From Fistulifera solaris (lineage: Eukaryota), in contig AP026164.1 in NCBI GenBank assembly GCA_030295235.1, forward strand, positions 1,612,001-1,676,000: DNA of 64,000 nucleotides, in the 5' to 3' direction. Shown in pieces: positions 1,893 to 57,098 of the stretch (its first letter is position 1; every line of letters begins with the position of its first letter). The notes below the pieces were generated by a model, which was not told where the DNA came from, did not search any database, and saw nothing but the letters and a program-made list of their open reading frames with translations. The position numbers and the translations under genes are program-made.

Positions 1893-4800
1893 ATGGCAGC
1901 CGTTCCGCTCACCTTTAGCAATGTGCTAAACGTAAGTTCGTCCGTGCGATCTTTCGCCCCGTAGAGCATCTACGGCCGTGTTCGTACCTCCTCAACGGTT
2001 CACTGCCTCTACGAGATTGGAGTGAATTGCTTCTTCTGGATAGCAATTTATTGCAAAGAACTGTATTTTCTCTCGTTTCGATGATTGATGGGAGGTCGGA
2101 GACAATGAACTTTGCAAAGACTCAACTGCCGCCGCGGTAGTCATTCGCATTGGCTTGCTCGAACGGCCGATTGGATTGCCTTCGGATCGTCACAAATGCA
2201 TAATTTAAACTAACGCGCGTCCCTTTTCTTTGCTTACTTTAGCTTCAACAACTCGGCGTTCCGGAAACGAGCATCAAACATGGTCTTACGACTATGGAAT
2301 CCGATCGATGGATCATTAGCGTTGAGCCCAACAACCTGGTGATGGTAGACCTGTTAAACGGAGCGCAAGTCACGAGGAGGCCGATGGCCGCCGAGGCGGC
2401 TCTCATGAACCCGTCGCAGAATATTCTCGCTCTCCGATCGCAGAATAATTTGCAAATCTTCAACATTGATCAAAAAGCCAAGTTGAAAGCGCATGTCTTC
2501 CCGGAACCCATCGTCTACTGGAAATGGACCAGTTCGACCAACATTGGCTTGGTCACCGCTACTTCGGTGTACCACTGGTCACTGGAGGGACAGTCCCCGC
2601 CGGTCAAGGTCTTTGATCGCCACCAAAGCTTGGGAGGAGGCGTGCAGATCATCAACTACCGCGTCTCCCCCGACGGCAAATGGTGCTTGCTCGGTGGGAT
2701 CAGCGCAGGAGCCGGGGGCGTGGTCAATGGGAACATGCAATTGTACAACGTCGACAAGAAAGTCTCCCAGCCTCTGACGGGTCACGCGGCGGCGTTTGCC
2801 ACACTCAAGCTTCCTGGACGTGAAGAAGCCCAAGTGATTGTGTTCCACGAAAAGAAGCCCACCGGAGAACCGCCCAAGCTGTTTGTACGAGAGATTGGTC
2901 GTGACCCCGCCAAAGGTCCCGCCTTTGGTATTACGCCGGCCGACATTCCTCTTCCACCGGATGCCGCCAATGATTTCCCCGTCAGTATGTCGATCGATCA
3001 GAAGGACGAGCTGGCGTTCATGCTGACCAAGAGTGGATACCTCTTCATGTTTGACATTCACAGCGGAAAGACAGTGTACCGTGCCAAGGTCACTCAAGAT
3101 GTTGTGTTCACCACCTGTACGCAGGATTCGTCGGGTGCCGTCTTTGGTATCACGGTCCGCAAGGGAGATGTCTTCCGCTTGCAGCTCAACGGACAGGCTC
3201 TGGTGCCCTACATCCTGAACACTTTGCGTGACAATGCCCTCGCTCTACAACTTGCTGGCCGCTTGAATTTGCCCGGTGCCGAAAACCTCTTTGCCGCCGA
3301 GTTTGAGCGCCTCATGGCTCAGGGAAATGTGCAAGAAGCCGCGCGCGTGGTGGCTGGATCGGGCAGCGCGTTGCGGACTCCGGCGACCATTGCACGATTC
3401 CAGCAGATCCCCGTCCAGCCCGGACAAGTGCCTCCGCTCTTGCAGTACTTTTCGATTTTACTCGAAACTGGAAAATTGAACGAACAAGAATCCATCGAGG
3501 TGGCCCGTCCGGTTTTGCAACAGAACCGATTGCCTCTCATGGAAAAGTGGCTCAAGGAAGACAAACTTCAGGCTTCGGAAACTTTGGGTGATTTGATCAT
3601 GCCTTATGATGCCGGTATGGCGTTGTCGGTGTTCTTGCGGGCAAACTGTCACGCGAAAGCCATTCATTGCTTTGTCCAGCGCGGGGAGTACGACAAAATT
3701 GTTCCCTACGCGTCGAGCGTTGGCTTCACCATGGACTACTCGTCCATGTTGAACCAGTTGCTGTTCAACAACCCACAGGGTGCGCTCGACTTGGCCAAGG
3801 GATTGGTCAACGCGGAAGGTGGTCCGCTCATCGACATTCAGGCAACGGCGGAAGCCTTCTTGAGCAGTAACCGTATTCAGGAGACGACGGCGTTTTTGTT
3901 GGAAGCGCTCAAGGACAACAAGCCGGAGCACGCGTACTTGCAGACCAAGTTGCTCGAAATCAACTTGATTGGCGGTGCACCACAAGTCGCGGATGCCATA
4001 ATGCAGCAGGGTCTGTTGACTCATTACGACCGACCCCACATTGGAAAGCTTTGCGAGAAAGCGGGCATGTGGCAACGCGCGGCGGAGCATTACACCGAGA
4101 TTTCGGACATCAAGCGCGTTTTCAAGAACAGTCATCAGATGAGCCCAGAATTCGTTGTCAGCTACTTTGGCAACTTGAACCGTGAGCAAAGTGTTTCTCT
4201 TCTCAAGGATATGATGGGTCGCGGTCCTCAGAACATGCAAGTGTGCGTGGAAGTGGCCAAGAAGTATCACGAAGAACTCGGAGCTGGCGATCTTGTTCAA
4301 GTGTTTGAACAAAACCGTGCCACGGAAGGTCTTTACTACTATCTTGGAGCGGTTGTCAATGTCTCGGAGGATCCCTTTGTCCACTTCAAATATATTCAGG
4401 CTTCGTGTATGCTTGGGCAGTTCAAGGAAGCTGAGCGTGTGTGCCGCGATTCCAACATTTACAATGCGGAAGAAGTCAAGGAATACCTCAAGAATGCCAA
4501 ATTACCCGATCCGCGTCCGCTGATCCATGTGTGCGACCGTCATGATTTTGTCGATGAGCTAACGGAATACTTATACCTCAACAGCCTTTTGCAATACATT
4601 GAGGTCTACGTCACGAAAGTATCCCCGGGCAAGACACCGATGGTGATTGGAAAGCTTTTCGACCTCGGTGCAAACGAGGACTTCATTAAGCGTCTCCTTA
4701 TGGCAGTCGGCACCGCATGCCCTGTCGATGAACTCGTCGAGATGGCCGAGACTCGTAACCGTCTTCGCTTGCTTCAACCATGGCTCGAAGCTCGTGTGGC

Positions 4801-7443
4801 GACCGGAAGCACCGAGCCTGGAACGCACAACGCTCTTGGAAAGATCTACATCACTCTCAATCGCGATCCGAAATCGTTCTTGTTGAACAATATGTTCTAC
4901 GATCCAAAAGTCTTGGGTCCGTATTGCGAATCGCTCGATCCTTCTTTGGCCTTTATTGCTTACAAGAAGGGAGCCGGTGAATGCGATGACCAGTTGATCA
5001 AAGTATGTCACGACCACGGACTATACCGTGACCTTGCAAAGTACCTTGTTGAGCGCCAGGACCTTACGCTTTGGGGTAAGGTTCTCAACAAAGAGGAAGG
5101 CAAAGAGGACGAAGAAGACCCTCAACGGCGCCAACTTATCGATCAAGTCGTCGAATGGGCTCTTCCAGAGAGCACAAATGCAGATGAAGTTTCTTGCACT
5201 GTCAAGGCTTTCATGGCCGCTGATTTGCCAGCTGAACTTATCAACCTCCTCGAGCGAATTGTTCTGCAAGGTTCGGACTTTTCGGACAACAAAAACTTAC
5301 AGAATCTTCTCATTCTTACTGCCATCCGTGCCGATACCTCTCGTGTCGGGGGATACATTGATCAGCTTGACAACTTTGATGCCAAGGACATTGCGCTTAT
5401 CTGTGTGTCAGAGCAACACATGCTTTATGAAGAGGGTTTCAATATTTACGTTAAGTTTGCCAAGCCGGAGTTCACGCAAGACAAAGACGAGCAGGTTGAA
5501 ATGCAAGTTCTTGCTATGGGTGTATTGGTGGACTACTTGAAAGACCTCGACCGCGGTAAAACTTACGCCGTCCAATGCGAAGAGAAACCGGTTTGGTCGA
5601 AGCTCGGAAAAGCTCAGCTCGAAGGTAAACATGCCGCTGATGCAATTGAGAGCTTCATTAATGCCCAAGATCCCAGTGAATACGTCATGGTTTGTGCTGA
5701 GGCAAATGAAGCAGAAATCTGGACCGAGCTCATTCCATTCCTCATTATGGCTCGCAAGACTATGCAAGAGAATCTCGTTGACACTGAACTCATTTATTCG
5801 TACGCCCGAACAAACAACCTGACCGAGATGGAAAAGTTTGTCAATGGTCCGAACGTCGCAAATATCCAAACGATTGGCGACCGTTGTTTCTCCGAGAGTC
5901 TCTACCATGCCGCGAAGATCCTCTATATCAACATTAACAACAATTCCAAGTTGGCACTTTGTCATATTCAACTTGAAGAATACAGAGAGGCTGTTGATGC
6001 TGCTAAAAAGGCGAACAATGTTTCGACGTGGAAGGCGGTGTGTTTCGCGTGTTTGCGTGCCGACGAATTCAGATTGTCTGCCACCTGTGGTCTCGAGGTC
6101 ATCAAATATCCCGACCATGTTGACGATGTTGTGACATACTACTCCGATCTTGGCCATTTCACGCACCTTGTTTCTCTTTTCGAGCAAGGAATTGGTCTCG
6201 AGGATGCGCACATTGGAATCTTCACCGAACTGGGTGTCTTGTACACGAAGCATGTTCCTGAGAAAGTCATGGATCATTGCAAGGTCTTCTTCAGCAAGCT
6301 CAACGTTTCGAAGGTGGTTCGTGCTTGCGAGCGGGCACGTCTGTTCAAGCCGACTGTGTATCTATACATGCAAGATAAGCAATATGATAACGCTGTGAAA
6401 ACGATGATGGAGCGTGCCAACGCCTGGGAAAACGATCTCTTCTTGGATTCAGTCACTAAAGTCCGCAATGCAGAACTCATTTACAAAGCTGTTGGCCATT
6501 ATCTCACCTACCACCCTATGCTGTTCACCCGTTTGATGGAAGTTCTTGAGGAAACTGCAGATCACTCTCGAGTTGTCAGCCAATTGCGACGCACAGGTGA
6601 CTGGGCGCTACAATTGGGTCAATCTTACTTGAAGGCTGTACAGAAATACAACTTGACGGCTGTCAACGAAGCGCTGAACGAGGTACGTTTGCTTTTTTGT
6701 TTTGTCTTTGATGAACTCGGCAGGCACAGAACGACTCACAATTACTTGTCTTACAGCTCTACGTCGAAGATGAAGACTACACTAGCTTGAGAAAATCTAT
6801 TGACAGTTTCAACAACTTTAATATGATCGCGCTTGCTTCCAAACTTGCTACCCACGAATTGCTTGAGTTCCGTCGTATCTCCGCATACGTATACCGACGA
6901 AACAAGAAGTACAGTCAGTCGATTGAGTTGTCGAAACACGATCGCATGTACAAGGATTGCATTGACACGGCTGATGAATCTGCCGACGCTGAAATCATTG
7001 AAGGCCTTCTTCGGTTCTTCTGCGAAACATCCGAGAAAGAGTGCTTTTGCGCAGCGCTTTACACTTGCTTCACTCACATTTCACCCGATGTCGCACTTGA
7101 ACTTGCCTGGATCAATGGTTATCAGAACTTCGTCATGCCGTTCGTCATTCAGACTTTTCGAAGAACTCATATGCGCCTTAAGGCTCTGGAGGAACGCACT
7201 GCACCTCCGGCGGAAGCAGGAAATGCGCAAGATACCATCGCTGCTACGTACGGACAGCTCGGCGGATTTGGTTCGGGTGTTTTGATGTTGGAGAACGGCG
7301 GTCCCAGTTTTATGCCTCCGATGGGAGGTGGTGGTCTTGACATGAGTGGATTTGCTCAGGCACAGCCACAAATGATGGGAGGTATGCCGAACGGAGGCAT
7401 GCCGCATATGCAACCCGGTATGATGCCTGGTATGGGCATGTAA
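1893..7443 (+). CDS. CHC: Clathrin heavy chain, 3 exons (1893-1931, 2243-6682, 6757-7443)
   Basis: TMESDRWI, KLPDPRPLIHVCDR, LQNLLILTAIRAD and LLEFRRISAY are hallmark CHC segments. GT-AG introns 1932-2242 and 6683-6756 join the exons in frame. Confidence 0.97.
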
Positions 7444-17574: not shown

Positions 17575-17996
17575 GATGAAACGCAAGAAGATAATGCTTT
17601 TTATGAACGCCAATACCAGTAACAAAGAAAAAAAAAACAAAAAAAGTTTCGAAGATCTTCTCACAAATTTCCGGGACTGGGATCTCGTGAGTCGTAGAAG
17701 AAAGGGAGCCTAATTAAATTATTTAGTACGGAGTGATGAATAACCAAAGATTTGTATGCAAGAAAGTGTTCATTCTGACACCCGTTTGCCTTCAAATACC
17801 AGGGCATTGCGTTCTTTCTTAACACTCTGTCTCATTTCCGAGGATCGTTCCGAAACTATTCACAAGGCTTTTATATCTCTTCATTGCTGTTCAAACCAAG
17901 TGAAATAATCATGTGTAAAGCAAAATGACGGCGGCACGAATGGAGTGGAGGCTTTGCCTCCGCGACCCTTATTTTCTTCATTTTCCGTGAACAAGG

Positions 17997-19491
17997 ATGA
18001 TGTTGCTTTGGAAAAGTGTTGTGCTCTGCTGGTGGGTAGCCGGATCGCATGCCATGAACACCTATGGCGTGCATTCGCGAGGTACCGGTGCGGGAGTGAA
18101 ACCCGTGATCTTTCCGACGTATGGTCCCATTCCAACGAAAGCGCCCAGTCTTAGCACGACGGATGTTCCTACCCCGAAAGCACCTACGGATCCAGCACCA
18201 AGTTTGATTAGTCAGACCCCAGCGCCTTTGCCGAAAGTATCGACGCATCCAGCACCAAGTCTTATGGTGCAGACACCGGCTCCTACCCTCGGAGCACCGA
18301 TGCATCCACCATCAAGTCCTGCTACACAGACGCCATCCTCTACCCCGATAGTCTCGACAGATCCTTCGATGTTAAGCGATTCTCCTACGATCCTTCTCCC
18401 GGACGAAATCACCTCTCCTCCTGCTTTGGAACCGACGACTGTTTCGGAGTGCTTGGCCCGAGCGCGCAATGAAACCGATCTCGCTCGCTTGGCCTTTCTC
18501 ATCAACTTGACTCTGGATCTTTCGGACGACGTTCTCACATTCGTGATGCGTTTGAGAGACTTTTTGCAAACGTTCCTGGCGACCGCTTTGTTGGGATGTG
18601 GTCTACGCCGTCCTGTGCTGCCGATTCGAGACGTTCAATTCGATCTCTCTATCAAGAATACGACATCAGGTACGTAATAGCTTGCTTTATTTCCTTATTG
18701 CTCCTGCCTCTGTCTCATTTTTGATTGTTCTAGACACTTCGTGTACCAACTGCACCGAAATTGCGATTCAAGTTGATATTTATTACGAAGATGGATGGAA
18801 TGTATCTGGCATTGACAAGTATCTCTTTGAAACATTGGCGTTGCATTGCTCGCGCATTGCGACGCTTGCCGGAATAGAAAAAATTTCGGACGGGTGTCGT
18901 TTCATGAGTATTTTGGGGCCGGATGGTACTTGGAAGTTCTTGGAAAATTTGCTGAATCCACCCCAAGGAACGACGGAGAACGATCTCGTCGTCGAGAAGG
19001 ACAGTATTTCGCCGTTGGGTGTCACGGCACTTTCTCTCAGCGTCTTGGCGATCGCTGTGGGCGTCATCTTCGCCATGAGACGCCGAAATCATGGCGAAGA
19101 ACTCGAAAAAGACGATGCCTGCGTGAAAGATGTGGAGCATGGGAGTGATGATACAGGATCGTTGGATCACTCTCCGGAAGGAAAATGCGAGCCGAGTGCT
19201 TCTATGGCGGACTTGAAAGGCTGCTCGGAACTAAGCGCTATCACCGGCTCTCAGTTGCGTTTTGTCACTGTGATTGAAGAATCCGATTCGGTCGACAGTA
19301 ACTGGAGTGGTGTTAGCAGTAAGCAACGTAGTCTTGCATCGTTTCACAGAGGTTTGACCGGCTCGGCGCTTTCGGATCCCAAATTTATCACCCTTTGTCA
19401 CCCCAGACGGATAGCAACACCCACATCTCGGAAAGTACGGGTCGATCTTCGGTTCGAACGCATCGGTCCCCCTGACACGGTTAGTCTTTGA
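17997..19491 (+). CDS. Hypothetical single-pass membrane protein with Pro/Thr-rich stalk (intron 18670-18733)
   Basis: Signal peptide, PTxAP repeats, and TM LGVTALSLSVLAIAVGVIFAM followed by RRR. The GT-AG intron joins two ORFs. Confidence 0.65.
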
Positions 19492-24288: not shown

Positions 24289-24404
24289 AATGAATAATTA
24301 ATTGTTCTATTTGCGATACTGTCAAAACGTATCCATAAACAGTGTGCCTCACGGCTCGTAAACTCTTTTTTTCTACATCTTAGAATTGATGCATATTTAA
24401 GGTT

Positions 24405-26728
24405 TTAAAAGTGAACCGACTTTCGAGAAAAAAGGGCTTTGATGCCGCGCCTCTTTGGAACTCTCAGATTGTTGGCTTCCTGAGTATTGGGCAATTCAAG
24501 CTTCGGATGGGCGGGCCTTTCCTTGGCAGATTCTTGATACACCGGATGACCGATGGGGCATTCCATCCATCGGTGTTCTTCCTCCGTCAATGAATTGGAA
24601 ATGACCTCAAGTTCATCCAGGATTCGGTCAAACGAAGGACGGCGATCGGGATCTCTCGTCCAACACTTTCCGATGAACGAACTAATAGAATCAGGGACGC
24701 CAGATGGGAATGGTGGACGTGCATCATTCATGGCGACGGCAGCGGCCGCTTCAATTTGCGACATGTTCGCAAACGGTGATTCACGCGACAGAAGCTGCCA
24801 AAACAGTATAGCGGAGGAGTAAACGTCAGCCGTTTGTGAATACGTTTCATGTCGAATCACTTCCGGAGGCATCCATCGATAGGTACCGGTTTCGGCGGTT
24901 GGATCCTGGTCACCTGCGTTGTTCGACTCGGTAGCAACACCAAAATCCGTTATCTTGACCGAAAAATTTCCCGATGAAACCACTCCATCGAGAAGAATAT
25001 TCCCGGGCTTGATGTCTCTATGAATGATACCTTTGTTGTGCAAATAGCTCATACCTTTTGAGATGCTGGATGCCACATGAAAGAAAAAAGTTACGGGGCG
25101 TGCATTTCTGCAGTGCGACGGACAAATCGCCGGCATCGCAGTATTCCAAAACAAGACAAAACGTTAACGGACTCGGATGGTACACCGAGCCTAGCAGACG
25201 AATGATGTTAGGATGATGCAATTTTTGCAGTGCCTGGACTTCTTTCCGCCAGCCATCGAGGCCCATTTCTGTGATGGAAGCGACTTTCACTGCCACATCG
25301 AGGCCACTCCATCTAGCTAGATACGTGGTTCCTGCTGCGCCTTGTCCTATGCGTTTCTTGAATTGAACTTCATAAAGATTGATTTCCCATTCTTTCGATG
25401 CTGGTGCTTTTGAAATTTCCTGTAACAATCCGTCAACTCCTTTCGCGATATTTTCGACCTCAATCTTTACTCCGTTCTGACGCATTGCTTTCGTCGATTT
25501 ATCGTCAGGTACTTCACCCGAGAGGACACTCAGTAATCGCCCCTTCACTTCTTCAGGAGATAGACTTTCTATGACACCCTTCAACTTTGCATGCGAGATT
25601 ACATTGAAAGCGAGGTCAAGCACGTTGTTAATTCTGGACGAGTTCCCAATGCTGTTCTTCACTGCGGTAGAATCGACGTCAGAAAGCACCGTGCAGTGTT
25701 CTATCTCTTCCACCAAAAGCAATTCCATCGAATGTAGCTTATTCACATAGAGTGATGTGAGATTCCACAACTTGTTTTCATTGTATTGTGATCTTAATTG
25801 CCCAAGTTCCAAGCCATTCAGAATCGCGCGTTGCAATTGTTGCATTTGCGGCGGCATTGTGATAACTTCTCGCACCAAATCGTGTAGCGTCCCTTCGGGT
25901 AGTTGATTCAGTTCTTCTTGTTGACTGCGCTGATTCTCCGCGGTCAAGACCAAGTCATTCATCAACATTCGCGACTCGGTATCCTCGGCGGCTAAAATGG
26001 AAGACAGAGTAGCACGTTCCACTCCTGCGGCTTCTTTCAGTCGTACAAATACATCGAGCAAGTTGACTAGCTGCAATATGTTGCTTTCCTGCGTTTCTTC
26101 GACGACGGGTGTTGTTGACGGGACATCATTCCTACGGTGGCCGAACAAGCCTTGCAGCCGAACATCCTCCTGAAACACCAAATCGACGAAGCGATCCTGG
26201 TGGATCGCATCAAACGATAAAGACCGAACACGTGTCGGTCGGCGATTTCCCAAACAGCCATTTCGTTCGGAGTCGTCTGCGTTAGATTCGCCAAATGCTG
26301 ATAGGATGACACGCGCGATCCGAAGCTGTCTTTCTTTGCAACGACTTGAATGACGATTTGGTTTTTTTATGCAATGAACGTTGAAAAGAGGTGAATTTGA
26401 GAATATACTCGTGATGAACGTATTGAATCAGTGTATTGTAACTGAGTAGCAATTTGTGAAATCCACACGTCGATGGCAGAGCCTCCAAAGGCAAGGTGCT
26501 ACGAATTTTCCCCAATACATGCGATGCCGTCGGATCCAGATTGTCTTTCAATCGTAAAATGGCTTGATCGGTGTCTCTCCGAGCGGGTACGAGCACGGAT
26601 AGCTTACGGGTAGGATGAGCCCGAAAGGCACAGGACGCCCCGCGTTCTTTCTGCAAGCAATAGACCAACCGCAAGATTTTCCGTAGAACGACCGAATCAA
26701 TCGCTGAAGTCTCGTTGCTTTCTTTCAT
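24405..26728 (-). CDS. NIT-domain (nitrate/nitrite-sensing) plus TKL/STY-like protein kinase, about 773 aa after correcting two homopolymer indels (26362-26368 and 25084-25089)
   Basis: N-terminal VYCLQKERGAS and RLKEAAGVERA match the two NIT signature helices. The C-terminal kinase has GQGAAG, VAVK, HRDIKPGN, DFG and TAETGTYRWMPPE. Removing one base from each run gives one open frame. Confidence 0.8.
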
Positions 26729-26857
26729 TTTAGAGGAGTAAAGAAGTTTGTGAAAGGATTACCAGAATTTATCGGCAGGAATGATTTGATTTTCGCACCT
26801 TTAACAATATAATTTTAACAAAACAAATAAACGCTTTTTCATTCCGACGGCCGGCAG

Positions 26858-27276
26858 TGTTGTGATTTCACCCCGAACTTGACGTCCGTATGGTATTTAA
26901 CCCTACGATGCTATTCAGTCCAGTTCAAGTCAAATGGAATCGGAAGACAGTAATTTGTTCTCAAACAGTCTATCTTTACTTTTTACGTCAACAGGATTCA
27001 TCCGAATTAATGCGGCGACCAGAGTCGGCATTGCCTTCGGCTGAATCTGTCTTTCGAGCTTTCCCAGCCACCAGATCTGCCCAAGTTACACACGTGGCCG
27101 GTTTAGTCCTTACCTGACTACTAAATGCACTTACTTGCTTACTAGCTTTCTTCTTTGTAGACTCGCTACCTCCACGCTGAAACTCTTTACCAGCTCCGTT
27201 GTCGTTAGAGATAGATGTGACGTCATACTGCGCGGGATTCAGCCCATCCGGGAGTCGCTCGAAATAATCTCCAACA
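26858..27276 (-). repeat. 3' LTR (419 bp)
   Basis: Identical by eye to 32722-33140. Preceded on the element strand by a purine-rich PPT-like GAGGAGCG (27277-27284). Confidence 0.95.
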
Positions 27277-30200
27277 CGCTCCTCGACTTCGAGGGGCGGG
27301 ATCTCGTGCAGCGAATCGACATGATTGTACCCTAAAATGACATCGCGGAACTTACGGAACAAACTCCCATTTAATGGCTTGGTGAAGAAGTCGGCCAGCA
27401 TTACTAAGGTTGGACAGTGACGAATAGACACGTCCAAGTCCCGGGTTCTATCCTTGATCCAAAAATACCTGATATCGATGTGTCTAGACTTCTGACCAGC
27501 CGACAGTCGCCCGTTCTTTTCCATTCTAATTGCACTCTCATTGTCCTGTTCAAAGATCACTTCAGTCATCTTGTGTCCCTGCGCTTCCATGAACAATTTA
27601 ACCCAAACTGTATGCGGTAAATAATCGCTCGCTCCTACCAATTCCGCCTCAGTCGAACTCCTGGTATTTAACTTCTGCTTTGTTGACTTGCAGACTAACC
27701 CACCTCGACCAAACGACGTTATCCCTCCAGTATGGCTCTTCATGTCGGGATGCACAGCAAAAGCAGCGTCGACCCAAGAGCGCATTTTGTTTAAACTGTC
27801 GGCTCCCATCGTATACGTCAATTCCAGCGTCCCTTTCACGTATTCTAGCACCCGCTTGAGTTTATTCTGGTCCTGCTTTGTACTTTTTGTGACTCGGGTG
27901 CACAGGAAAGACACTGGTAATAAAATATCCATCCTCGCTCTCACTGCTATGTAAAGTAGTTTGGCTACCACGCTCCGGAAAACATCGAATTCATCTCCTT
28001 CCAGGGCCGGCGACGCCTCGTCTATGTCAAACAAATTACTTTTCGCAGGAGTTGTTGCTTCCTGCGTGATCCCAAGTTTCGACTCGTCAATGCTCTCTTG
28101 CAAATAGTCCCTCATTTGTACCACCACGGTGTTGTTCGTTTGGAACTCGATGTCCATTCCCAAAAACTTATGTTTCATCCCTCTCGTGACAGACATTTTT
28201 CCAAATCTACCTTCAATGTCCTCAATTACTGTTGTTACAACGTTGGGATCAACATGGGAGACCTTCATATCATCGACATACCAAGCAATTGTGCATTGCT
28301 TTCCATTGATCGTTTTGTTGGCAACGCAGGTGTCATAGGGATTGAGTTCAAAGCCCATGTCCTGGAGCGCGCCGGCAAACATTTCGTACCATAGTAAAGC
28401 ACTACATACACATCCATATAGAGCCTTCCGTAGCTGGACGTACAACACTCTTTTCCCCCCTTCGACAGCAACGAAAGCTTCATACTTCGGATTCATTTTG
28501 CACATGATGTCGACCGACTCTCCGGTGAATTTTAACAAAGTGAAATCCTTCATGTTTGCTTTCAGATACGCACCCACAACATCCGCTATCGCTACGTCCC
28601 GTCCTTCATGAGCGTCAACAATCAACGACAGCAAAGCGAATCCGTCGACACGGTGGGTGACGCCGTTTGCGATTTTTCGTATAAGTTCTTTTGCACGCTG
28701 CCATCGGCTACAGTGCGACCTTTGATGCGGCCATCTCTTTTCTTTGTTACCAGGTTAATGGCTCGTAGCGCTTCTTTCTTTTGCTGTCGGGTCAAAGATT
28801 GTGCCTGCATCGCCATGAACACATCGAGGTCGTCGAGTTGCGCAAACTCTTGCATGAGTGCCTGTATTGCGTCATCTCCGTACAATTTGATGGCAGCTTT
28901 GGCAGTCAGTTGAGCGAACACTCTTCCGAAAATGATCTTCTGCAGTTGTTTCATGTTCATCTTCCCTTGGTCGGTGGCCGTGTTCAAAACCGCCTGCACG
29001 AGAACTGTTTGCAACAGCACCTTTGGCGTTTCGTACGCCTTCGTGCTGTGTGGTTCATCCATCGCTTCGGCAAGTCTTGTGGGTGCCCGAATGTGGTTTC
29101 TGTCTCTGAGTTGGTATCGCGATTCAGTTCCTTGATTGGTATAAAAATCGGCCTCTGGTTCCTTTTCCTCATTTTCGGCCGCTCCTTCGTGTTCATCGAG
29201 TAGTTCGGTTGCTTCAATCAAAACTTCCGGCGCTCCTTGGTCTTCAACGAATGTGTTGGTGTTCTCTTCCGTGTCATCCGACGCTCCTTCTTCTTCATCA
29301 ATTTCGTTGTGTACTGTAAAGTCGGTTTCATTTGCTGCATCGTCGATCAGATTGTCGCCGTGTTGGACGGCTTGATCTTGGTCTTGAAAGTCGGCTTGAT
29401 CTTGGTCTTGAAAGTCGGCTTGATCTTGGTCTTGAAAGTCTTCGTCTGGGTCTTGGGATTCGGTTTGAAATCCGTCGTTGTCTTGGTCTTGCAGATCTGT
29501 GTCTGTGTCTTGAAGATTGTCGTTATGCTGATCTGCGTCTGTGTCTTGAATGTCGTCTTGAATGTCAAACTTCGCTCCTTGATCCGTGTTTGGAAGCAAA
29601 AACGGATCATCGACTTCATCGGGAAATGGAAGATAGACTTGCTCTGGGTCGCCCCACTCAACAATCAACCCAGTCGTCTGAATGAGAGGTTGATTGTCGG
29701 CCTGTGCCAGACGATCCATTTGGGTAAGAACCGAATCGTGAATGTGACAAAGGGTCCATTGGTGACGAACGATGACCTCTCCGGATGCAAGAGAGAGGAA
29801 ATAGTATGCGCCTCCGTGATTTCCTGTAGAACAGAGAGCAATGGCGCCCGTGTGTGCGTGATCGGGGAGTGTTGCTAGGTGTCGGTGCGTCAAAAACCTG
29901 TGCCGTATGAACCGAATTCGATACGTAGCTTGTTGTAGTCCGGAGGCGGTGATCCCGTCATGATGGTTTCGGGTGATAGGTCGTCCGATACTCCATACTT
30001 CCACGGGAAAACGTTGAGCCAGTGCACCACATTCATCATGAGGTGCTGAACAAAACGCAATGGGTAAGCGCGTGTAGGGCAGGCCATGGATAGTCGTGCG
30101 TGCCCGCTCCTTGATGGTCCTATTGGAGCGCTCAATTTCCGGTAATGCGCGTGTTGGGCGACAATATCCAAGCGGACAGGGCCTATGTCGTCCCGCAGGC

Positions 30201-32322
30201 AGGCAAACTTCGTTGTCGCCGTGGATAGCTGTCACTGGGAGTCCACGGCTTTTGTAAATCTCAAAGAGTCGGACGAAACTCCTTGAGCATGGTGGCCTTT
30301 TGTCTGTTTGGGACGGGGGCGATGGTGCGCCATCCAATAGCGCGAGAAATCGTCGTTATAAAAGGTATTTTGTTCACGAAAACGAAATCGACTGCGAGCG
30401 TAACATGGTTGTGGTGCAATAAGATGGATCGCGGCACCGGAATCGCTGTAAGTGTGGGAACATGCTCCGGTGGCGGTCCTGCTGTGGTAGTGCCTTTTAA
30501 ATGGGGAATATCTGGCCCGTGATATGGCAATGGCTCGCCGAGCATCGTCAACCGTCACGGGACAGTTGTGGACGCGGTTTTTGCGCAACCAAGCTTCAAA
30601 TGCCCTCATGCCGGGTCGTCCGACAATCCGATATAACCTGCAGCGCCTCGTCGGCTTGCTGCACTTGGCGTGGTCGTAAATAGTTTTTATTTGCTTCTAC
30701 AGTTGTTACTAGGGTACACGGCGTGTAGGCTTAACAGTGTTGCTATTGTTAGGCTTGAAAACATATAAACCAGACTCCTGTTCGATGAATTTCATTGTCG
30801 AACCATCTTTGCGATGTACCAACAGAGCTAGTTCTTCTTCAGTATCTAGGGTGACACGACACACCTTGTTGACATCTTTCATTGAGAGGATATTTGCAAT
30901 CGACTCGGGGTTAAACCACACCGTTCCTAGGTTGGGAAACTTCGCCAACCATGTATGAGTCCTGATAACCCCCATTCGTCACCGGCCGTAGTACTTCATC
31001 ACTTTTGCGGATGTTGTAAAGATACTGGGGGTTGTTAAACACCGACACGGTCGATTGTGTGTCAAGTAGAATCCATTCATTGCTGATACAATGGTCACAA
31101 TTTCGACTTCGCCTGTGTTAGAACGTAAGCATGTTGCAAAAGAGTTGTTCCGCGGTTGTTTGGAAGGGTGCAGTTGCCTGCATAGTGTCCATACAAATTG
31201 CAGTTGTAGCAAAGTACGTCAGGGAAGACTCTGCCATCATTCCCGGTGACTACACCGTCACTGGTCTGGGCCTGGGTAAACGTAAAATTTCCTACGGTCG
31301 TTGCCTCCGCCTTCGGTCCTTGTTCCCGCGTCAGGTGTGCTGCGCGATGTTGCTGTTGTGCGGGAGGCGTTCTTTGGTACTTCATAAAGGTTCACCAGAG
31401 CAAAGGCCGTAGCCAAATCCGTCGGGTAATGATCATTTCCCTTGACATAGTCGTTCTTTAGTTCTCCGATAAAGCGTGCCGTATCTTGTTTTGTCGAGAC
31501 CTTGAATGAACACCGTTCGCGAGGGTGTATTCCAGGGCACCTTGTGCGCGAGCGTCCTCATCCCCGAGTGACTCTGGGACGTTTGTCCAATTTCCGCTTA
31601 AGTTTCCTCCACAGTGCTTCACAACGTCAGCCCAGGCCTTGAGCCTGTTCATGAAATCTTCCGGCGTTTCGTTCGCAGCTTGCTGACACGCAAAGAAGTT
31701 TTTCTTCGCTTCGATCTCGGAGACCATTGGGTTCTTCTTGTTGTCGTAGTTCATCGTTACTGCCTTGAGCTGTTGTAGCAACCACCACGCAGTCATGGGC
31801 GTCGAAGCGTTCTTCAAAACCTTCGACAGACTTTACTTTCGTTTGCATCGCCGGGCTGGTTTGCTCCCAAATCAAGTTGTGGAAAGCCACCAGGTTTGCT
31901 TGGAGTTCTCTTCTTGTTTTCGCGAATATCTTCAATTCTTCGTTCCGAATGGTAATGTCGCCGGCTGGAGCGCCTTCGGGGAGTGGCGCTGGCCTCTCGA
32001 CCACCGGTTGATTCATCGGGTCGGCAAATAAGCCGACATTTGCATGTACGTATCTTTGTAGTTTTCTTTCGCCACTGCCTGCAGCTTCGTCATGGTCTTA
32101 CTGTATTGTGTTCGGTCGTTGGCCTCTTCGGGCAACTCAAAAACATGGCCACCCATCGCCGTACTCGCTCCTCGGAACTTTGCTTTCTTCGCTTGACCTT
32201 GTCCTTTATGGTTCCGTCCTCCGTTGCCTCTTCCTCCGCGTCCGCCAGCGGCCCCCTCCGCGACCTCGTCCGGGGGTTCGGCTATCTGGTGCGCTTGCGG
32301 CATCAGGCACGGGCGAGGACAT
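26988..32322 (-). CDS. Copia gag-pol polyprotein, fragmented by many frameshifts; its stop lies inside the 3' LTR
   Basis: ORF fragments 32013-32303, 31627-32016, 31458-31817, 31095-31385, 30709-30975, 30232-30609, 28622-30337 and 26988-28634 tile gag to RNase H. The likely start is MSSPVPDAAS at 32322. Confidence 0.8.
29368..29440 (+). repeat. 3 x 24-bp tandem repeat encoding DFQDQDQA in the integrase-RT linker
   Basis: cggcttgatcttggtcttgaaagt occurs three times. Confidence 0.9.
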
Positions 32323-32331
32323 CTTGTTTGC

Positions 32332-32680
32332 CTAGGGTTCGTCTCGTCTCAGATGTTTTCGAAGTCTCCAGGTGTGGGTTCCGTTGTCTGTGATCACGTG
32401 TATTTTTTCGTTGTTGCTTTCGTCTACGTGATCCACCGTGGCTCTTCGCTCCTTTTCTGTTGTCCACGTCTCGCTTGCGTTGGCCGGACGCCCTGATCTT
32501 GTTTGTGATCCGGACTCGATCCGTCGGTCTGAGGCGACGATCTTCCTGACTTTGGTTGCGTTGCTGGGACCCGTCCAATTTGCTCAGAAGCGCGCTTTCC
32601 TCTTGATCAAGCTTCTTTCTGGTGATGTGGATCGTTTTGATTCGCTCAATGATGCCTTGGATCTCGTCAGGAGTTGTCAT
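32332..32680 (-). CDS. Small accessory ORF upstream of gag (coiled coil plus KOW/SH3-like beta domain; one apparent frameshift)
   Basis: MTTPDEIQGIIERIK...DRVRITNKIR continues in another frame as ERRATVDHVD..KIHVITDNGTHTWRLRKHL and ends at TAG 32332. Confidence 0.55.
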
Positions 32681-32721
32681 CCGCTGTCAGGGTCGTAAAA
32701 GTGCTTTTAATTCGGGATGAA

Positions 32722-33140
32722 TGTTGTGATTTCACCCCGAACTTGACGTCCGTATGGTATTTAACCCTACGATGCTATTCAGTCCAGTTCAAGTCAAATG
32801 GAATCGGAAGACAGTAATTTGTTCTCAAACAGTCTATCTTTACTTTTTACGTCAACAGGATTCATCCGAATTAATGCGGCGACCAGAGTCGGCATTGCCT
32901 TCGGCTGAATCTGTCTTTCGAGCTTTCCCAGCCACCAGATCTGCCCAAGTTACACACGTGGCCGGTTTAGTCCTTACCTGACTACTAAATGCACTTACTT
33001 GCTTACTAGCTTTCTTCTTTGTAGACTCGCTACCTCCACGCTGAAACTCTTTACCAGCTCCGTTGTCGTTAGAGATAGATGTGACGTCATACTGCGCGGG
33101 ATTCAGCCCATCCGGGAGTCGCTCGAAATAATCTCCAACA
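32722..33140 (-). repeat. 5' LTR (419 bp)
   Basis: Direct repeat of 26858-27276, upstream of gag on the minus strand. Confidence 0.95.
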
Positions 33141-33199
33141 GGCAGCGCTGATGGAATGAAATCTTCGTAACTACTTTATGGTCGGGGTTTAAATAACAA

Positions 33200-33354: not shown

Positions 33355-35046
33355 ATGATTTCGTCATTTCTTCGCTCGAAAACAGCAGCAGCGGCACTGT
33401 TCCGCACAAGGATCGCTGGAGTGTCACTATCTCGACAACTCCAGACGACCTCCTTTCATTTACCCAAACCAGCACCCACCACGAATCATGTCAGTACCTT
33501 GCCTTTGGTCAAAATGGTAGCCACCATTGGACCGACATCGGAACAGCAGGAACCATTACAAAAAGTAGTGAAGGAAGGAATGAAGATTATGCGTCTCAAC
33601 TTTTCGCACGCGACACCCGAAGAAGTCGAATTGCGTTGCACGAATTTGGCGTTGGCGCAGGTGAGTTGTTGTCGTTGTTGTCTGCGTACGTGCGGGCGTA
33701 CAAACGTTTGACTCCCCCCTTTTTCTTGACTCATTCTGACATGATAACGCGTTATTGCTTCGTTTTCATTTGATTGACTAGAAAACACTATTCGGTGCGC
33801 CTCTCCAAGACACCCGCGCCATCTTATTGGATACCAAGGGACCGGAACTTCGTACCGGCAAGCTAGCGAATGATGATACCGGTCATGCTACCATTCAGTT
33901 GAATCAGGGAGACACGATTACTCTTCACACGACTCCCTTGGAGGGTGGAAGCACGCCGGATGCCTTGTTTATTGACTACAAGTCCTTGCACAAGGCGCTG
34001 CAGCCCGGAATGACCGTGCTCTTGGATGACGGAGCTATCTCCTTGACCGTCCAATCGATTCATGGCGAAAAGGTCATTTGCACCATTGATAATACAGGAG
34101 ATCTGCGCAGTCGGGCGGGTGTCAATTTGCCCTTTGCGGATACCAGTGATTTACCGGCCATGTCGGAAAAAGACAAGGCCGACATTCGTTACGGAATGCA
34201 GGCTGCCGATATTGACTTTGTGGCGGCATCCTTTGTTCAAACTGCTGAGGGAGTGCAACAAATTCGGGCGCACATTGCCGAATGTGCTCGTGAATTGAAC
34301 TGGACGAAACCCTTACCACTGATTATAAGCAAAATCGAAACGTCCTTGGCGCTAAAAAATTTTGATGCGATTTTGGAGGCGAGTGATGCCATCATGGTCG
34401 CCCGTGGTGATCTCGGTGTGGAGATCCCGCTTTCGCAAGTTACGAACGCGCAAAAGAAATGGTGGCCGCCTGTAACGCCGTCGGAAAACCCGTCATTGTG
34501 GCCACACAAATGTTGGAAAGTATGACCAAGAATCCCCGTCCGACCCGAGCCGAAGTCAGTGATGTCACCAACGCCGTGTATGACGGTTGCGATGCCACCA
34601 TGACCAGTGGAGAGACCGCTAAAGGCAAATACCCAGACACGACAGTCCGTACGATGAACGAAATCATTGTTGCCTCGGAACGATACAGTGCCGCGGCACC
34701 CTTCCCGGTCGCCTCCAATGTGTGTTACGCCGCGGAATCCAGCGAGTACGCTCCCATGGCGCATGCCGTGTGCCGAGCGGCGCTTGAGCGTAATAGCGTG
34801 GCCATTCTTTGTTTGAACGCGGATATGGCCCCGATCATTGCCGCATGTCGACCTCATATTCCCGTTATTTCCTTTTGTACCTCCTCCAAACAAGCCCGTC
34901 AGCAGCAACTGTATCGTGCCGTTTTCCCCGTTGTAGAGAACGGCGTTACGATGGCGAATGCTGTCGAAAAGGCCGCCGCATTGGGATGGGTCCTGGAGAA
35001 TGACAGCTTAATCTTGGTGGATGGTACTACCATGAAATTCGTTTAA
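33355..35046 (+). CDS. PK: Pyruvate kinase with mitochondrial-type presequence (intron 33661-33781; apparent A-run frameshift near 34453)
   Basis: [43 protein letters not shown] and ATQMLESM...PRPTRAE. The N-terminus [19 protein letters not shown] is Arg-rich and acid-free. Confidence 0.95.
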
Positions 35047-51012: not shown

Positions 51013-53088
51013 ATGGAGACTGTATTGAACTCGAAACAAACCGCGCTAGTCTTTGGCGGCTCCGGTGAGCAAGGGCGCGCCGTGGTCGAAGGTTTGGCCT
51101 GTGCGGGCTTTTTCTCCCGTGTACGCGTTCGGTCATCAACACAGCGTCGAACAGCAGCAATACTTGACCGATGCATTGGGAGCTATCTTTTGGAAGGGGG
51201 ATCTTCAGAATCTAAATGATGTACGCCAGGTATTACAAGAAACACAGGCTACCGCCATCGTGCTCATTACTACCACTGATATCCCCTGTGATGGTTTTCA
51301 GCACGGCCGCCGCCGCGGAGTATCAAGTGATCGAATCCTTCTTCCGCTGTCTCAAAGAAGTATACGAGAAGGATAAGCTTCCTCGACATGTCGTCTTTAA
51401 CTGCCGGGATAATGTACAAGAAGAGGCGAAAGGATGGATCGATCCGCTCGATGACGGTAGTATTGTGCCCCATTTTAGCGCCAAAGGGCGTGGAGCGGCC
51501 TTTGCTCTCCGATTTTGGCCGACGTTCCGGACTTGAAGCTTACCTTGGTGACCATACCCTTTCTTTATTCCAATTTCTTGGGTTTCTTCTGCCCGCTTCC
51601 TGATGAGAGCCAGACACAATGGAATCTGTCGGCGTGTTTTGGTGACGGCAACAACAAAATCGACATGCTGGGTGCACAAGACCTTTCTATCCTTGTTCGT
51701 AAGTGCAATTGAATGATTTGTGAGTACTGAAAGCTGTTCTGGCTGACACTATCCGTCTTGATTTCTTGACAGCGAACATATTCGAAGAGCCAGAAAAGTA
51801 CGACAACCAGAACCTCCGGGTGGTGGGTCAACGGATTTCGATGGACGAAATTGCCTCCATGTTTGAAGATTTGTATGGGAAACCTGTCATTTACAATCCA
51901 CTGACCGTCGAGGAAGTATCGTCGATGGAGTTCGAAGGCGCAGCGGCGGTGGCGCAAATGTGTCAGTATTTGGGCGATGCTCGTCACCGCCCCCACGACG
52001 TAGAATTGACTCGTCAGATTCTGAGACAAGACCCACAACAATTCGAAGACTGGTTACTAACACATTCGGAGGCTTCGGCCTTTGTCAAAGCTGGTCTGAT
52101 AGAGGATGCGCCATCCATTGTGTCGGTGGCGGTTTTCGGAGCACCGTCCGTAGAAGCGACAAGTGTCGTGAAGGGGCTACTGTACGATGTCCGGAAGGAA
52201 TACGCGATCCGTATCCCAGTAAGCGATGTCAAGAATCAAGATGTGGTCGAACTCAGGGCACTTCATCCCGACCGTATTACAATTGTTCCAGTTGATCTAA
52301 ATGATACCAAATCTTGCCAAGCTGCGGTAGATGGTGTTCAAGGAGTTTTCTTGGCCACCCACTGTCTTTCCGAAGATTCCACGCCATTTGAACAAGAAGA
52401 GGAGCGAATATGCCGCGTCATTGATGCCTGCGAAGCAGCAAAGAGCGTTCGGCATCTCGTGTTCAGTACTTTTGAATCGGCCGAGTTGCTGAGTCACATG
52501 CAGGAGTTGGGACATTTTGAGCACGCAAGCGCGTTAGATCACTTTGATGCTCGTGCTCGATCAGCAGCGTATGCTAGAACAAGGAAACTTTCAGTTACGT
52601 ACGTGCTCTTGCCGTATTATACGGAACACTTCTTGAGCATGGTGGTGAAGCAGGCCGATTCTTCGGTGGTATTGAATGTCCCCAAGGACAAGCAAGATAC
52701 CAAAGTTGTTTGCATGAGTATCGATGATCTCGGTGTTGCCGTTGCGAATATTTTTGATAGTTATCAAGTCTATTCAGGCCATGAAATCGGGTTGGTCACT
52801 GACTTCGCTTCGGCAAACGATATCAAGATACTTATGGAGCAAATGATTCTAAAAAGCTCGGACGGGACAACGGTAAAAGAGGAAAAGATAACTGAAACGA
52901 TTACCCATCCGACGTACATGAAGGACTTTGGGCAGATGTTTGGTAACCTTGCTCACTCAGAAGCCGTGAAGCGCCGCCGTTCTGTTGCAAAGACATTTCA
53001 ACTCATTCCTTCGGCGCGCCCACTGAAGGAGTGGATCGAAATGAATGCAAATGATGAGTCGTTCCGCGAGAAGCTTGGTCTGCGGTGA
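51013..53088 (+). CDS. Tandem double NmrA-like (atypical SDR) protein (intron 51699-51772; several apparent frameshifts in 51100-51520)
   Basis: Domain 1: LVFGGSGEQG, VPHFSAK, PFLYSNF. Domain 2: VAVFGA, DGVQGVFLAT, HLVFST, DHFDAR. Confidence 0.75.
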
Positions 53089-55678: not shown

Positions 55679-56731
55679 CTACCAATGCAAAAGCGCAGCT
55701 CCGGCTTGCATGTACGGATGTGCAAAGTAAGCAGCTATGGTACCTCCAACTACCAAAAAGTAAGGTCCGCGCAGGAACTCTTTGTAGTAATCCGGAGGGA
55801 GCTCCTGCCGTCCTTCCCATATCGCCTGAAATGGCACTACCGATGTTTTGCTCTTTATGTACTCAAAATCTTCCCCATGCCGTGTTTGTAGTCGTCGATC
55901 CCCATGATAAATGGAAAAGGCATGATGAGCGACCAGAATCGCGGACGCCGCTACCGCTGTCGATGTTCCTAACCACAAAGTATGCGCAAAGCACCAAACG
56001 AATTGCCCGATGGCTTGAGGATGCCGTGTGATTCGCGTAATACCCGTCTCCCACAAATGCAGTTGTGGTGGTTGAATCGCAGCAATTTCCAACAAATTAA
56101 ATGTACTCGGGTACAGGAACAAGAAAGAGATAAAGTTGGCGATCCAAAGCGCGGAATGAATCCCCGGCACTTGCGTAACATCCCAGTATTGGGTTCCTTC
56201 GTGTGCGTGATTGATAAAGTAAGAGATACAAGACAGTGCCAAGGGCAAACTAACCAAGGCAAACAACACCCGCCAAGCACGTGCTCCTACCACTGGTTCC
56301 GCGTACGTGCGCAACCCCGCCAAGCCCGAATGAAAGATGGCAAAGACCGATAACATTCCCGTGACGGTAACAGCCGGGTCAGTCGTTCCGAGACTTGACT
56401 GAATGATGTTGAGAAAGGCATCACCACCGTGTGGTCCCGAGGGCCAGAACCACACGTATGCCACCAATGCCAGGACGGTCCCGGTGGCGACGGAAAATTG
56501 AATCCATTCAGTCAAGGACTGTTCTTCCAAAGAAAAAGCCGCCGCATCGTCTCCGACAAGTTCCTTTGTTTCTTGTTGTTGGATTGAAGCGAAAAGTGAT
56601 GATGTTGTAGGAAATGTTCGACCGGTGATCGTTGTCGGCGGACAAGGATGAGTCGTCGGATGATGAGGTATAAAGGCCTCAGCCGTCAGAAAGGCTCGTG
56701 CTATGAGTGCCAAAAACAGAATACGCTGCAT
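55679..56731 (-). CDS. Z-ISO: 15-cis-zeta-carotene isomerase (Z-ISO, NnrU family), plastid-targeted
   Basis: Signal peptide plus AEAF. HSGLAGLR, FLYPSTFNLLE, ETGITRITRHPQ and HGDRRL. Confidence 0.92.
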   Translation of the reverse strand: MQRILFLALIARAFLTAEAFIPHHPTTHPCPPTTITGRTFPTTSSLFASIQQQETKELVGDDAAAFSLEEQSLTEWIQFSVATGTVLALVAYVWFWPSGPHGGDAFLNIIQSSLGTTDPAVTVTGMLSVFAIFHSGLAGLRTYAEPVVGARAWRVLFALVSLPLALSCISYFINHAHEGTQYWDVTQVPGIHSALWIANFISFLFLYPSTFNLLEIAAIQPPQLHLWETGITRITRHPQAIGQFVWCFAHTLWLGTSTAVAASAILVAHHAFSIYHGDRRLQTRHGEDFEYIKSKTSVVPFQAIWEGRQELPPDYYKEFLRGPYFLVVGGTIAAYFAHPYMQAGAALLHW

Positions 56732-57098
56732 GGTAGATTATCTTAAGTACACGGTTGAAAGCAAATGAAAGGAAGAAGATATTTAAATGTAATACTGATT
56801 TGACGAAAGATAATGTGTAGGAGTACTAGAGTCTACAAAGTTCAAGAGCCATTATTATCGTGAATTATTATCGTGATGTTCTTCGGTTCCATTATTATTT
56901 GGAGTGGTGAATGACGTACCTTTCGGCATTTTAGATGAGTACCGGTACGTGTTTTCACGATCCGAAAGATCCGCAAAGAGCGGCGCGGAAAAACGAAGAC
57001 CAGTCGCTTTTTGCGAAAAACCAGAAAAGATTGCAATCATCGGAGGATTACAAAAACGAGAGAGCTATTCTTTCGTCTTCGTTCTTACAAAGAGGAGC

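Follow-up and report, generated by a model that had tools for sequence, protein, structure and literature searches.

The 64,000-nucleotide window of the Fistulifera solaris genome analyzed here (assembly GCA_030295235.1, contig AP026164.1, positions 1,612,001 to 1,676,000) poses a question that begins with reading frames and ends with function: do three overlapping open reading frames on its minus strand, between positions 24405 and 26728, encode one intact protein, and could that protein be a nitrate or nitrite sensor coupled directly to a protein kinase? A reading of the DNA letters alone, termed here the original prediction, had joined the three frames into a protein of about 773 residues by removing one base from each of two homopolymers, and had assigned to it an N-terminal NIT sensor domain and a C-terminal TKL-type kinase domain. 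The gene is intact and its protein is already deposited; the frame breaks, of which there are three, are homopolymer errors of the assembly. The assignment of both domains is solid, and the protein is a candidate for a soluble, one-component sensor kinase.

The three long pieces are present as proposed, at 26282–26758, 25018–26427, and 24405–25163, as stop-to-stop reading frames that overlap one another and lie in different frames. When the protein of a homeologous gene copy, P0001, is compared with the window by tblastn, however, four collinear pieces are obtained, in frame −1 (26728–26324), frame −3 (26342–26253), frame −2 (26250–25081), and frame −3 (25097–24408), indicating three frame breaks rather than two. 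Short-read contigs of four public runs, X1–X4, which belong to one study and carry one organism code, account for all three. Over the coding sequence, the same three single-base changes relative to the window are found in all runs and restore the frame in four of four, and base substitutions in the X1–X3 contigs number zero. The first error lies at 26335–26337 in a variable loop of the NIT domain, where the window has a run of three A residues and the contigs have four; a T on the plus strand is inserted behind 26334 in X1, X2, X3, and one X4 contig, taking frame −1 to frame −3. The second, at 26249–26251, is a run of three G residues that is four in the contigs, with a plus-strand C inserted behind 26248 in X1, X2, X3, and one X4 contig and a change from frame −3 to frame −2. 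The third, at 25084–25089, falls in the kinase domain between subdomains V and VI, where the window has one base too many, T6 (plus-strand A6) against T5 in the contigs; one base is omitted at 25084 in all four runs, and frame −2 returns to frame −3. Short-read correction, suggested beforehand as a check, thus restores every site. Because the runs may share material with the assembly, they are no independent check on it; both the deposited protein and orthologues do, for their part, agree with the contigs.

The repair in the T6 run had been placed correctly by the original prediction, whereas its other repair, the removal of one A from an A7 run near 26370, opens the frame but misreads about 35 residues of the variable loop; that repair is ruled out, as an orthologue and the contigs put the shifts at 26334/26335 and 26248/26249. 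Introns are likewise ruled out as the source of the frame changes, since the contigs are collinear with the window over the coding sequence and differ from it by single bases only. The corrected coding sequence (24405–26728, minus strand) is intron-free and comprises 774 codons, with the stop codon at 24405–24407, so that the estimated size was nearly right and short by one residue.

Independent translation of the four in-frame window segments gives 770 of 770 residues identical to the deposited F. solaris protein GAX20128.1 (P0239, 774 residues), a comparison that omits just the four residues at the frame breaks. In a large sequence collection, the closest proteins are intact NIT-plus-kinase proteins of 772–774 residues, one of them named Fistulifera solaris. 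The frameshifts had been expected to hide the gene from annotation; instead, the identical intact protein and that of the homeologue, GAX13150.1, are both deposited, and both already have a Pfam NIT match in the collection. It is the name carried by GAX20128.1, “MAP kinase kinase kinase 9”, that conceals the sensor domain. Single contigs of X1 and X2 span the whole coding sequence (24353–26721 and 24343–26721, respectively), and X3 covers it in two pieces. The sensor and kinase are therefore directly fused, and separate transcription of the sensor reading frame, which would have undone the prediction, is unsupported.

In addition to the window copy, run X4 contains a second gene copy that is ~92% identical in DNA, with contigs over window positions 24806–25147 and 26533–26639. 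Among the best-supported 40 of 128 rows of differences between the two copies, 39 lie inside the coding sequence and one outside, and 30 of those 39 fall at third codon positions (binomial p 3e-8). Because the differences are mostly at third positions, both copies evolve as coding sequence. The similarity of the second copy to the window breaks off 13 nt upstream of the ATG, at a loose end (26741); this copy is consistent with the other homeologue of an allodiploid genome, resembling GAX13150.1.

The N-terminal portion of the protein (25693–26695, minus strand; residues ~12–346) is a true NIT domain, as identified by Pfam, by profile search, and by structure prediction. The Pfam model PF08376, which has 239 positions and a gathering score of 24.9 bits, matches the first reading-frame piece with 30.5 bits (profile positions 2–67) and the second with 27.3 bits (profile positions 111–238); in the homeologue proteins P0001 and P0002, the match rises to 49.4 and 51.5 bits, respectively, with E 1e-12 in the 92%-identical homeologue. 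A profile of 17 N-terminal parts of the family finds the Klebsiella oxytoca regulator NasR (PDB entry 4AKK) as the sole PDB match below E 0.01 (E 1.3e-4). In the profile alignment, the motif on helix 1 pairs with LQCERG of NasR and the motif on helix 5 with KELAGQERA. Both motifs are found where they had been predicted: LQKERG at 26639–26656 (minus strand) contains Arg29, aligned to the Arg of LQCERG, and KEAAGVERA at 26011–26037 (minus strand) contains Glu238 and Arg239, aligned to those of KELAGQERA. An AlphaFold2 model of P0001 residues 1–347, with a mean predicted local distance difference test (pLDDT) score of 72.7, superimposes by VIA-align on chain B of 4AKK with a Z score of 22.0 and a root-mean-square deviation of 3.3 Å over 239 residues that include both helical bundles; the next chain has a Z score of 11.9. 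NasR is thus the top fold match, and the comparison with its structure bears out the predicted identity of the domain. The ESM Atlas places bacterial NIT proteins nearest among its feature clusters, at 0.89, a lead that stays under the 0.9 bar; its structure rows, with template modeling (TM) scores below 0.3, are uninformative. A homodimer prediction for the NIT domain, run without controls, scored 0.00 and counts neither way.

Across 47 full-length relatives, the invariant residues are Q26, E28, R29, G30, R76, K232, E233, G236, E238, R239, and A240. Both motifs are recovered by regular expression in 45 of 103 matches, many of the others being fragments. In NasR, E175 and R176 are part of the proposed nitrate pocket, according to the part of PMC7496416 available, which cites Boudes 2012. 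Counted with a 27-residue offset that we infer for the PDB construct, these two residues would be the Glu and Arg of the second motif.

The main departure from a simple NIT fold is a variable, Ser/Arg-rich loop of ~85 residues (26098–26353, minus strand; residues ~126–211) that lies between the two four-helix bundles and contains the first two assembly errors. The loop is an unusual, disordered insertion that splits the domain: its pLDDT is below 50 at residues 126–146 and 148–211 in the P0001 model and at 128–211 in a full-length model, and its columns in the 17-member N-terminal alignment are poorly conserved and vary in length. The family consensus of the loop has two semiconserved R-x-x-S spacings. 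These could be phosphorylation sites that add a second regulatory input.

The C-terminal domain (24609–25368, minus strand; residues ~455–707; PF07714/PF00069) adopts the sequence features of a TKL-type protein kinase, as had been predicted. The Pfam kinase models are split over the third frame break, with profile positions 1–95 in the second piece and 103–259 in the third, and in P0001 the match is of full-length coverage with E 6e-57. The search for PF08376 and PF07714 foreseen in the original prediction thus finds both domains. The catalytic motifs are intact: the glycine-rich loop, the VAVK lysine at 25285–25287, the HRD motif at 25014–25022 (within HRDIKPGN), the DFG motif at 24939–24947, the activation-loop motif TAETGTYRWMPPE, and an APE-like motif in a segment ending in YRWMPPE. 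TAETGTYRWM, followed by PPE, was correctly located in the third reading-frame piece. The domain is predicted from these motifs to be catalytically competent. The nearest solved kinases are MLK1/MAP3K9, MLK4, CTR1, DLK/MAP3K12, ZAK, TNNI3K, TAK1, and B-Raf, with E values of 1e-35 to 1e-21 for the C-lobe, and one EGFR entry is also among the top PDB matches. The domain is most consistent with the MLK/Raf/CTR1-like part of the TKL group. This C-lobe similarity is also the source of the annotation “MAP kinase kinase kinase 9/11” in public records; a MAP3K role would be a name given by similarity.

The NIT and kinase domains are joined by a linker (25369–25692, minus strand; residues ~347–454) with a conserved helical module at residues ~370–404 and a pre-kinase helix at 432–441. 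In the full-length model (pLDDT 76.1, predicted TM score 0.56), the linker helices comprise residues 370–375, 380–389, 392–404, and 432–441, and the stretches at 352–367 and 412–428, where pLDDT is below 50, are flexible. This model extends the NIT domain to residues ~346–358 and gives the domain anatomy, with no trustworthy contact between the NIT and kinase domains. The C-terminal tail (24408–24608, minus strand) is mostly disordered in prediction (pLDDT below 50 at residues 740–774) and has a basic end, FSRKSVHF; it contains a W-x-x-x-P-x-G-H-P-V-Y element that is conserved family-wide in the consensus of 47 relatives. No Pfam domain beyond NIT and kinase is found in the homeologue proteins. 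A membrane span is not expected, in agreement with the original prediction, as the highest 19-residue Kyte-Doolittle mean in P0001 is 1.38; no dedicated signal-peptide predictor was run.

Proteins with this soluble NIT-then-kinase architecture have been described in another ochrophyte, and the novelty implied by the original prediction does not stand. NIT plus Ser/Thr/Tyr-kinase proteins of Pelagomonas calceolata are in print, with a proposed role in intracellular nitrate or nitrite sensing (Guerin et al. 2022, PMC9481584; PMC12054182), and expression of the Pelagomonas NIT genes is reported to vary with nitrate (PMC9481584, PMC12054182, PMC4410273). The available text of that work restricts the homologues to pelagophytes, dictyochophytes, and one cryptophyte. 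Similar to the pelagophyte and dictyochophyte proteins in architecture and in proposed role (as far as the latter is set out in the portion of PMC9481584 available), the diatom family differs from them in its hosts, which are diatoms and one haptophyte. The likeness drawn here is one of architecture, and the family searches returned no Pelagomonas sequence.

Like NasR, the diatom protein has the NIT fold, the aligned Glu-Arg motifs, a soluble one-component design, and a sensor that is N-terminal to the output. The main differences between the two are that the output of NasR is an RNA-binding ANTAR domain and that of the diatom protein a eukaryotic TKL kinase, that the diatom bundles are split by the disordered loop, and that identity is 14–18%. 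The MLK/Raf/CTR1 kinases (MAP3K9, MAP3K12, B-Raf, and Arabidopsis CTR1) have a similar kinase C-lobe, and none has a NIT domain. Their regulatory parts are an SH3 domain and leucine zipper in MLK, the RBD and CRD in Raf, and an EDR1-type N terminus in CTR1. All of these are absent from the diatom protein, in which Pfam detects NIT and kinase only. NarX/NarQ and McpN, which sense through PilJ or four-helix-bundle P-box domains, are also helical-bundle receptors for nitrate or nitrite, but they belong to another family, are periplasmic and membrane-anchored, and have histidine kinase or chemotaxis outputs; the structural match to NarQ (Z 9.3) is no better than that to unrelated bundles. The closest parallel in animals is provided by the NIT-guanylyl cyclases of placozoans and bilaterians, in which a bacterial-type NIT domain is also coupled directly to a eukaryotic signaling enzyme and both arginines are conserved, as described in the accessible part of PMC7400543. 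These are membrane proteins that hold the NIT domain between two transmembrane segments and produce cyclic GMP (cGMP), whereas the diatom protein is soluble and its output would be phosphorylation.

The family itself is widely distributed among diatoms, in line with the survey that the original prediction had suggested. A HMMER search with the N-terminal profile against 1.84 billion representatives matches 526 clusters at E<=1e-3, of which 179 remain at E<=1e-10 and 106 at E<=1e-30. The HRD kinase motif is present in 62 of the best 150 of the 526 clusters. The other 88 of the 150 include many short fragments; in these 88, Pfam detects NIT in 46, PK_Tyr_Ser-Thr in 21, and Pkinase in 20, and no third Pfam family at E<=1e-5. 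Among the matches listed, the kinase is, judged by motif and Pfam, the sole partner domain of NIT in the family. Named diatom members are found in Fistulifera solaris (both homeologues), Seminavis robusta, Mayamaea pseudoterrestris, Fragilaria crotonensis, Thalassiothrix antarctica, Thalassiosira species including T. oceanica, Conticribra weissflogii, and Corethron hystrix, and several named members are complete transcriptome reading frames. Phaeodactylum, Thalassiosira pseudonana, and pelagophyte names did not turn up in word-limited searches, which cannot show absence. The lone named member from outside the diatoms, P0231, has 968 residues with the NIT motif and HRD and was found in a haptophyte transcriptome (Scyphosphaera apsteinii); either the family is more widely distributed or the sequence is a contaminant.

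The gene is probably expressed. The contigs end at 24353 in X1 and at 24343 in X2 and X3, 52–62 nt past the stop codon, and this stretch (24343–24404, minus strand) is a probable 3′ untranslated end, with the limit that contigs cannot prove an RNA end. At the 5′ side, contigs of X1, X2, and X3 join 26721 to 26799 and so skip a stretch of 77 nt (26722–26798, minus strand) that has GT..AG ends and includes the annotated ATG at 26726–26728. X4, which is the largest contig set and the one that also carries the second copy, keeps an unspliced contig over 26656–26887. The skip pattern is consistent with splicing, but the RNA label of these runs is a guess. The joined form also has a short upstream reading frame that starts at 26842; it may be the main transcript, an aberrant product induced by the LTR of the element described next, or one side of a regulated retention of the intron.

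Just upstream of the gene lies a 6283-bp retrotransposon of the Copia type (26858–33140, minus strand), recognized by its pair of long terminal repeats (LTRs) and by RVT_2 in the reading frame 26988–28754. The LTRs, at 26858–27276 and 32722–33140, are each 419 nt long and 100% identical, have the termini TGTTG...CAACA, and are flanked by a 5-bp target duplication, GGCAG, at 26853–26857 and 33141–33145; the element is very young. It ends 130 nt upstream of the ATG of the NIT-kinase gene and has the same orientation as that gene. The junction at 26858 is bridged by the X4 contig 26656–26887 and by contigs of X1 and X3, which begin inside the 3′ LTR. Transcripts that derive from the LTR or read through from the element, and use a splice pair that takes out the start codon, would be the simplest explanation; contig assembly would lose any normal transcripts with a short leader. 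Before the insertion, a short intergenic stretch separated the NIT-kinase gene from a divergently oriented pyruvate kinase gene (33782–34525, plus strand). The pol frame of the element is split into overlapping reading frames at 26988–28754 and 28622–30355, which may be the product of another assembly indel.

The best overall explanation of the locus, for which the balance is even, is an intact gene for a soluble, one-component protein of 774 residues that would sense nitrate or nitrite through its NIT domain and pass the signal to its kinase. The binding site for nitrate or nitrite would lie between the bundles, at the Glu-Arg pairs that are invariant (R29 and E238/R239), and binding would rearrange the bundles, a change that the final NIT helix and the linker would relay. 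Autoinhibition of the kinase would thereby be relieved or imposed, comparable to the restraint of the ANTAR output by NIT in NasR, and the kinase would phosphorylate targets in nitrogen metabolism. That the NIT domain of NasR autoinhibits ANTAR is stated in the available section of PMC7496416.

Several observations weigh against this explanation. The fold match was obtained with the 92%-identical homeologue P0001, not with the window protein, and 4AKK predates AlphaFold2, which may remember it. Foldseek against the PDB ranks 4AKK first with a probability of 1.00, but with E 0.03 and a TM score of 0.51, and returns nothing at E<=0.001; we ascribe the weak E value to the disordered insert. The 64-kb window holds no nitrate-assimilation genes, neither a nitrate transporter nor a nitrate reductase. 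As for the transcripts, the RNA label of X1–X4 is a guess only. In the joined form, from which the start codon is missing, the reading frame is closed upstream by a TAA at 26815–26817 and lacks an ATG ahead of the NIT domain, or up to residue ~157; at least this form of the transcript thus cannot encode the complete sensor. Finally, the one functionally tested eukaryotic NIT protein that we found, Platynereis NIT-GC1, responds to a nitric oxide (NO) donor through its NIT domain, and the ligand may be NO, nitrite, or nitrate, according to the available part of 10.1101/2023.08.02.551600.

This last result is the foundation of the strongest alternative, that the NIT domain would report NO, NO-derived species, or nitrite from nitrate reductase rather than nitrate supply, with the kinase acting in stress or NO signaling. 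NIT-GC1 makes cGMP upon addition of an NO donor in a manner that requires the NIT domain, its authors cannot separate NO from nitrite or nitrate (10.1101/2023.08.02.551600, as far as that text was available), and for the animal NIT cyclases this possibility is also brought up by Moroz et al. (PMC7400543, likewise in part). The lack of nitrate-assimilation genes among the neighbors within the window points the same way. We regard this alternative as unlikely, however, as the residues aligned to the proposed oxyanion pocket of NasR are invariant, NasR is a sensor of nitrate and nitrite, and an informal reading of the alignments suggests no haem or metal site for NO.

A NIT domain that senses no small ligand is the next alternative. 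The domain would then serve as a helical scaffold for regulation or oligomerization, and the kinase would be controlled by phosphorylation of the Ser/Arg-rich loop or by partner proteins. The long, disordered loop that interrupts the domain is compatible with this, as are the wide separation of the matched NIT halves relative to the 239-position model (residues 21–77 in the first piece and profile positions 111–238 in the second) and the presence of members near or below the NIT gathering score, such as P0080 with 25.2 bits. Yet the residues that are invariant family-wide are those of the two Glu-Arg motifs of the proposed NasR pocket, which would be unexpected in a mere scaffold and renders this alternative quite improbable.

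A further alternative, very improbable, is that the window copy no longer works, being a pseudogene or a gene crippled by the retrotransposon, in which case the locus would be a relic irrespective of the rest of the family. Such a copy would suit the three frame breaks in the window sequence, the insertion 130 nt upstream of the ATG with its 419-nt identical LTRs and 5-bp duplication, and the X1–X3 contigs, which pass from inside the 3′ LTR to the gene without the 77 nt that contain the ATG and have an in-frame stop upstream and no in-frame ATG before residue ~157. Against it, none of the three breaks is found in the short-read contigs of the four runs or in the deposited protein, the second copy departs from the window mostly at third codon positions, and X4 contains the unspliced form. 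A normal transcript starting within the 77 nt could also be hidden, since short alternative 5′ ends are lost when contigs are assembled.

The nitrate/nitrite-sensing explanation can be taken further, tentatively and with less than even confidence, to a proposal in two parts that stand together. NIT-TKL kinases may be the as yet missing cytosolic receptor for nitrate and nitrite in diatoms, a one-component sensor that is conserved between radial centrics and raphid pennates and by which the size of the internal nitrate pool would directly set protein phosphorylation, with nitrate reductase, NRT2, or transcription factors as conceivable targets; and one homeologue in F. solaris may just have been rewired by an LTR retrotransposon, such that its main transcript lacks the first sensor bundle. 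Much of the marine production based on nitrate is due to diatoms, which also keep stores of nitrate inside their cells. In the consulted part of PMC7408324, the nitrogen-perceiving kinases and receptors of diatoms are still listed as candidates only. No paper on NIT-kinases in diatoms was found in the literature searched, whose coverage ends short of subscription journals and supplements. The combination of a conserved single architecture, invariant residues of a proposed pocket, and direct wiring to a kinase makes the diatom NIT-TKL family a concrete candidate receptor kinase for nitrate, nitrite, or an NO derivative, and one that is cheap to test. The design is also seen to extend beyond pelagophytes and dictyochophytes. 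The result for the window itself is more modest, in that the protein is deposited and its frameshifts are assembly errors, and the architecture together with the sensing hypothesis is already published for pelagophytes, a sister algal group.

The window also encodes an NnrU-family protein (55679–56737, minus strand), whose plant and algal relatives are zeta-carotene isomerases, and an NmrA-like protein (51724–53088, plus strand). They lie ~25–30 kb away and have no evident link to the NIT-kinase. Other genes of the window are split in a similar manner into pairs of overlapping reading frames: a clathrin heavy chain (2243–6790 and 6715–7443, overlapping at 6715–6790), a prolyl oligopeptidase (56877–58577 and 58511–59584, overlapping at 58511–58577), and an unnamed pair (17991–18677 and 18556–19491, overlapping at 18556–18677). 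Short homopolymers are present in two of the three overlaps, and the splits may reflect homopolymer indels that are common in the assembly, or introns.

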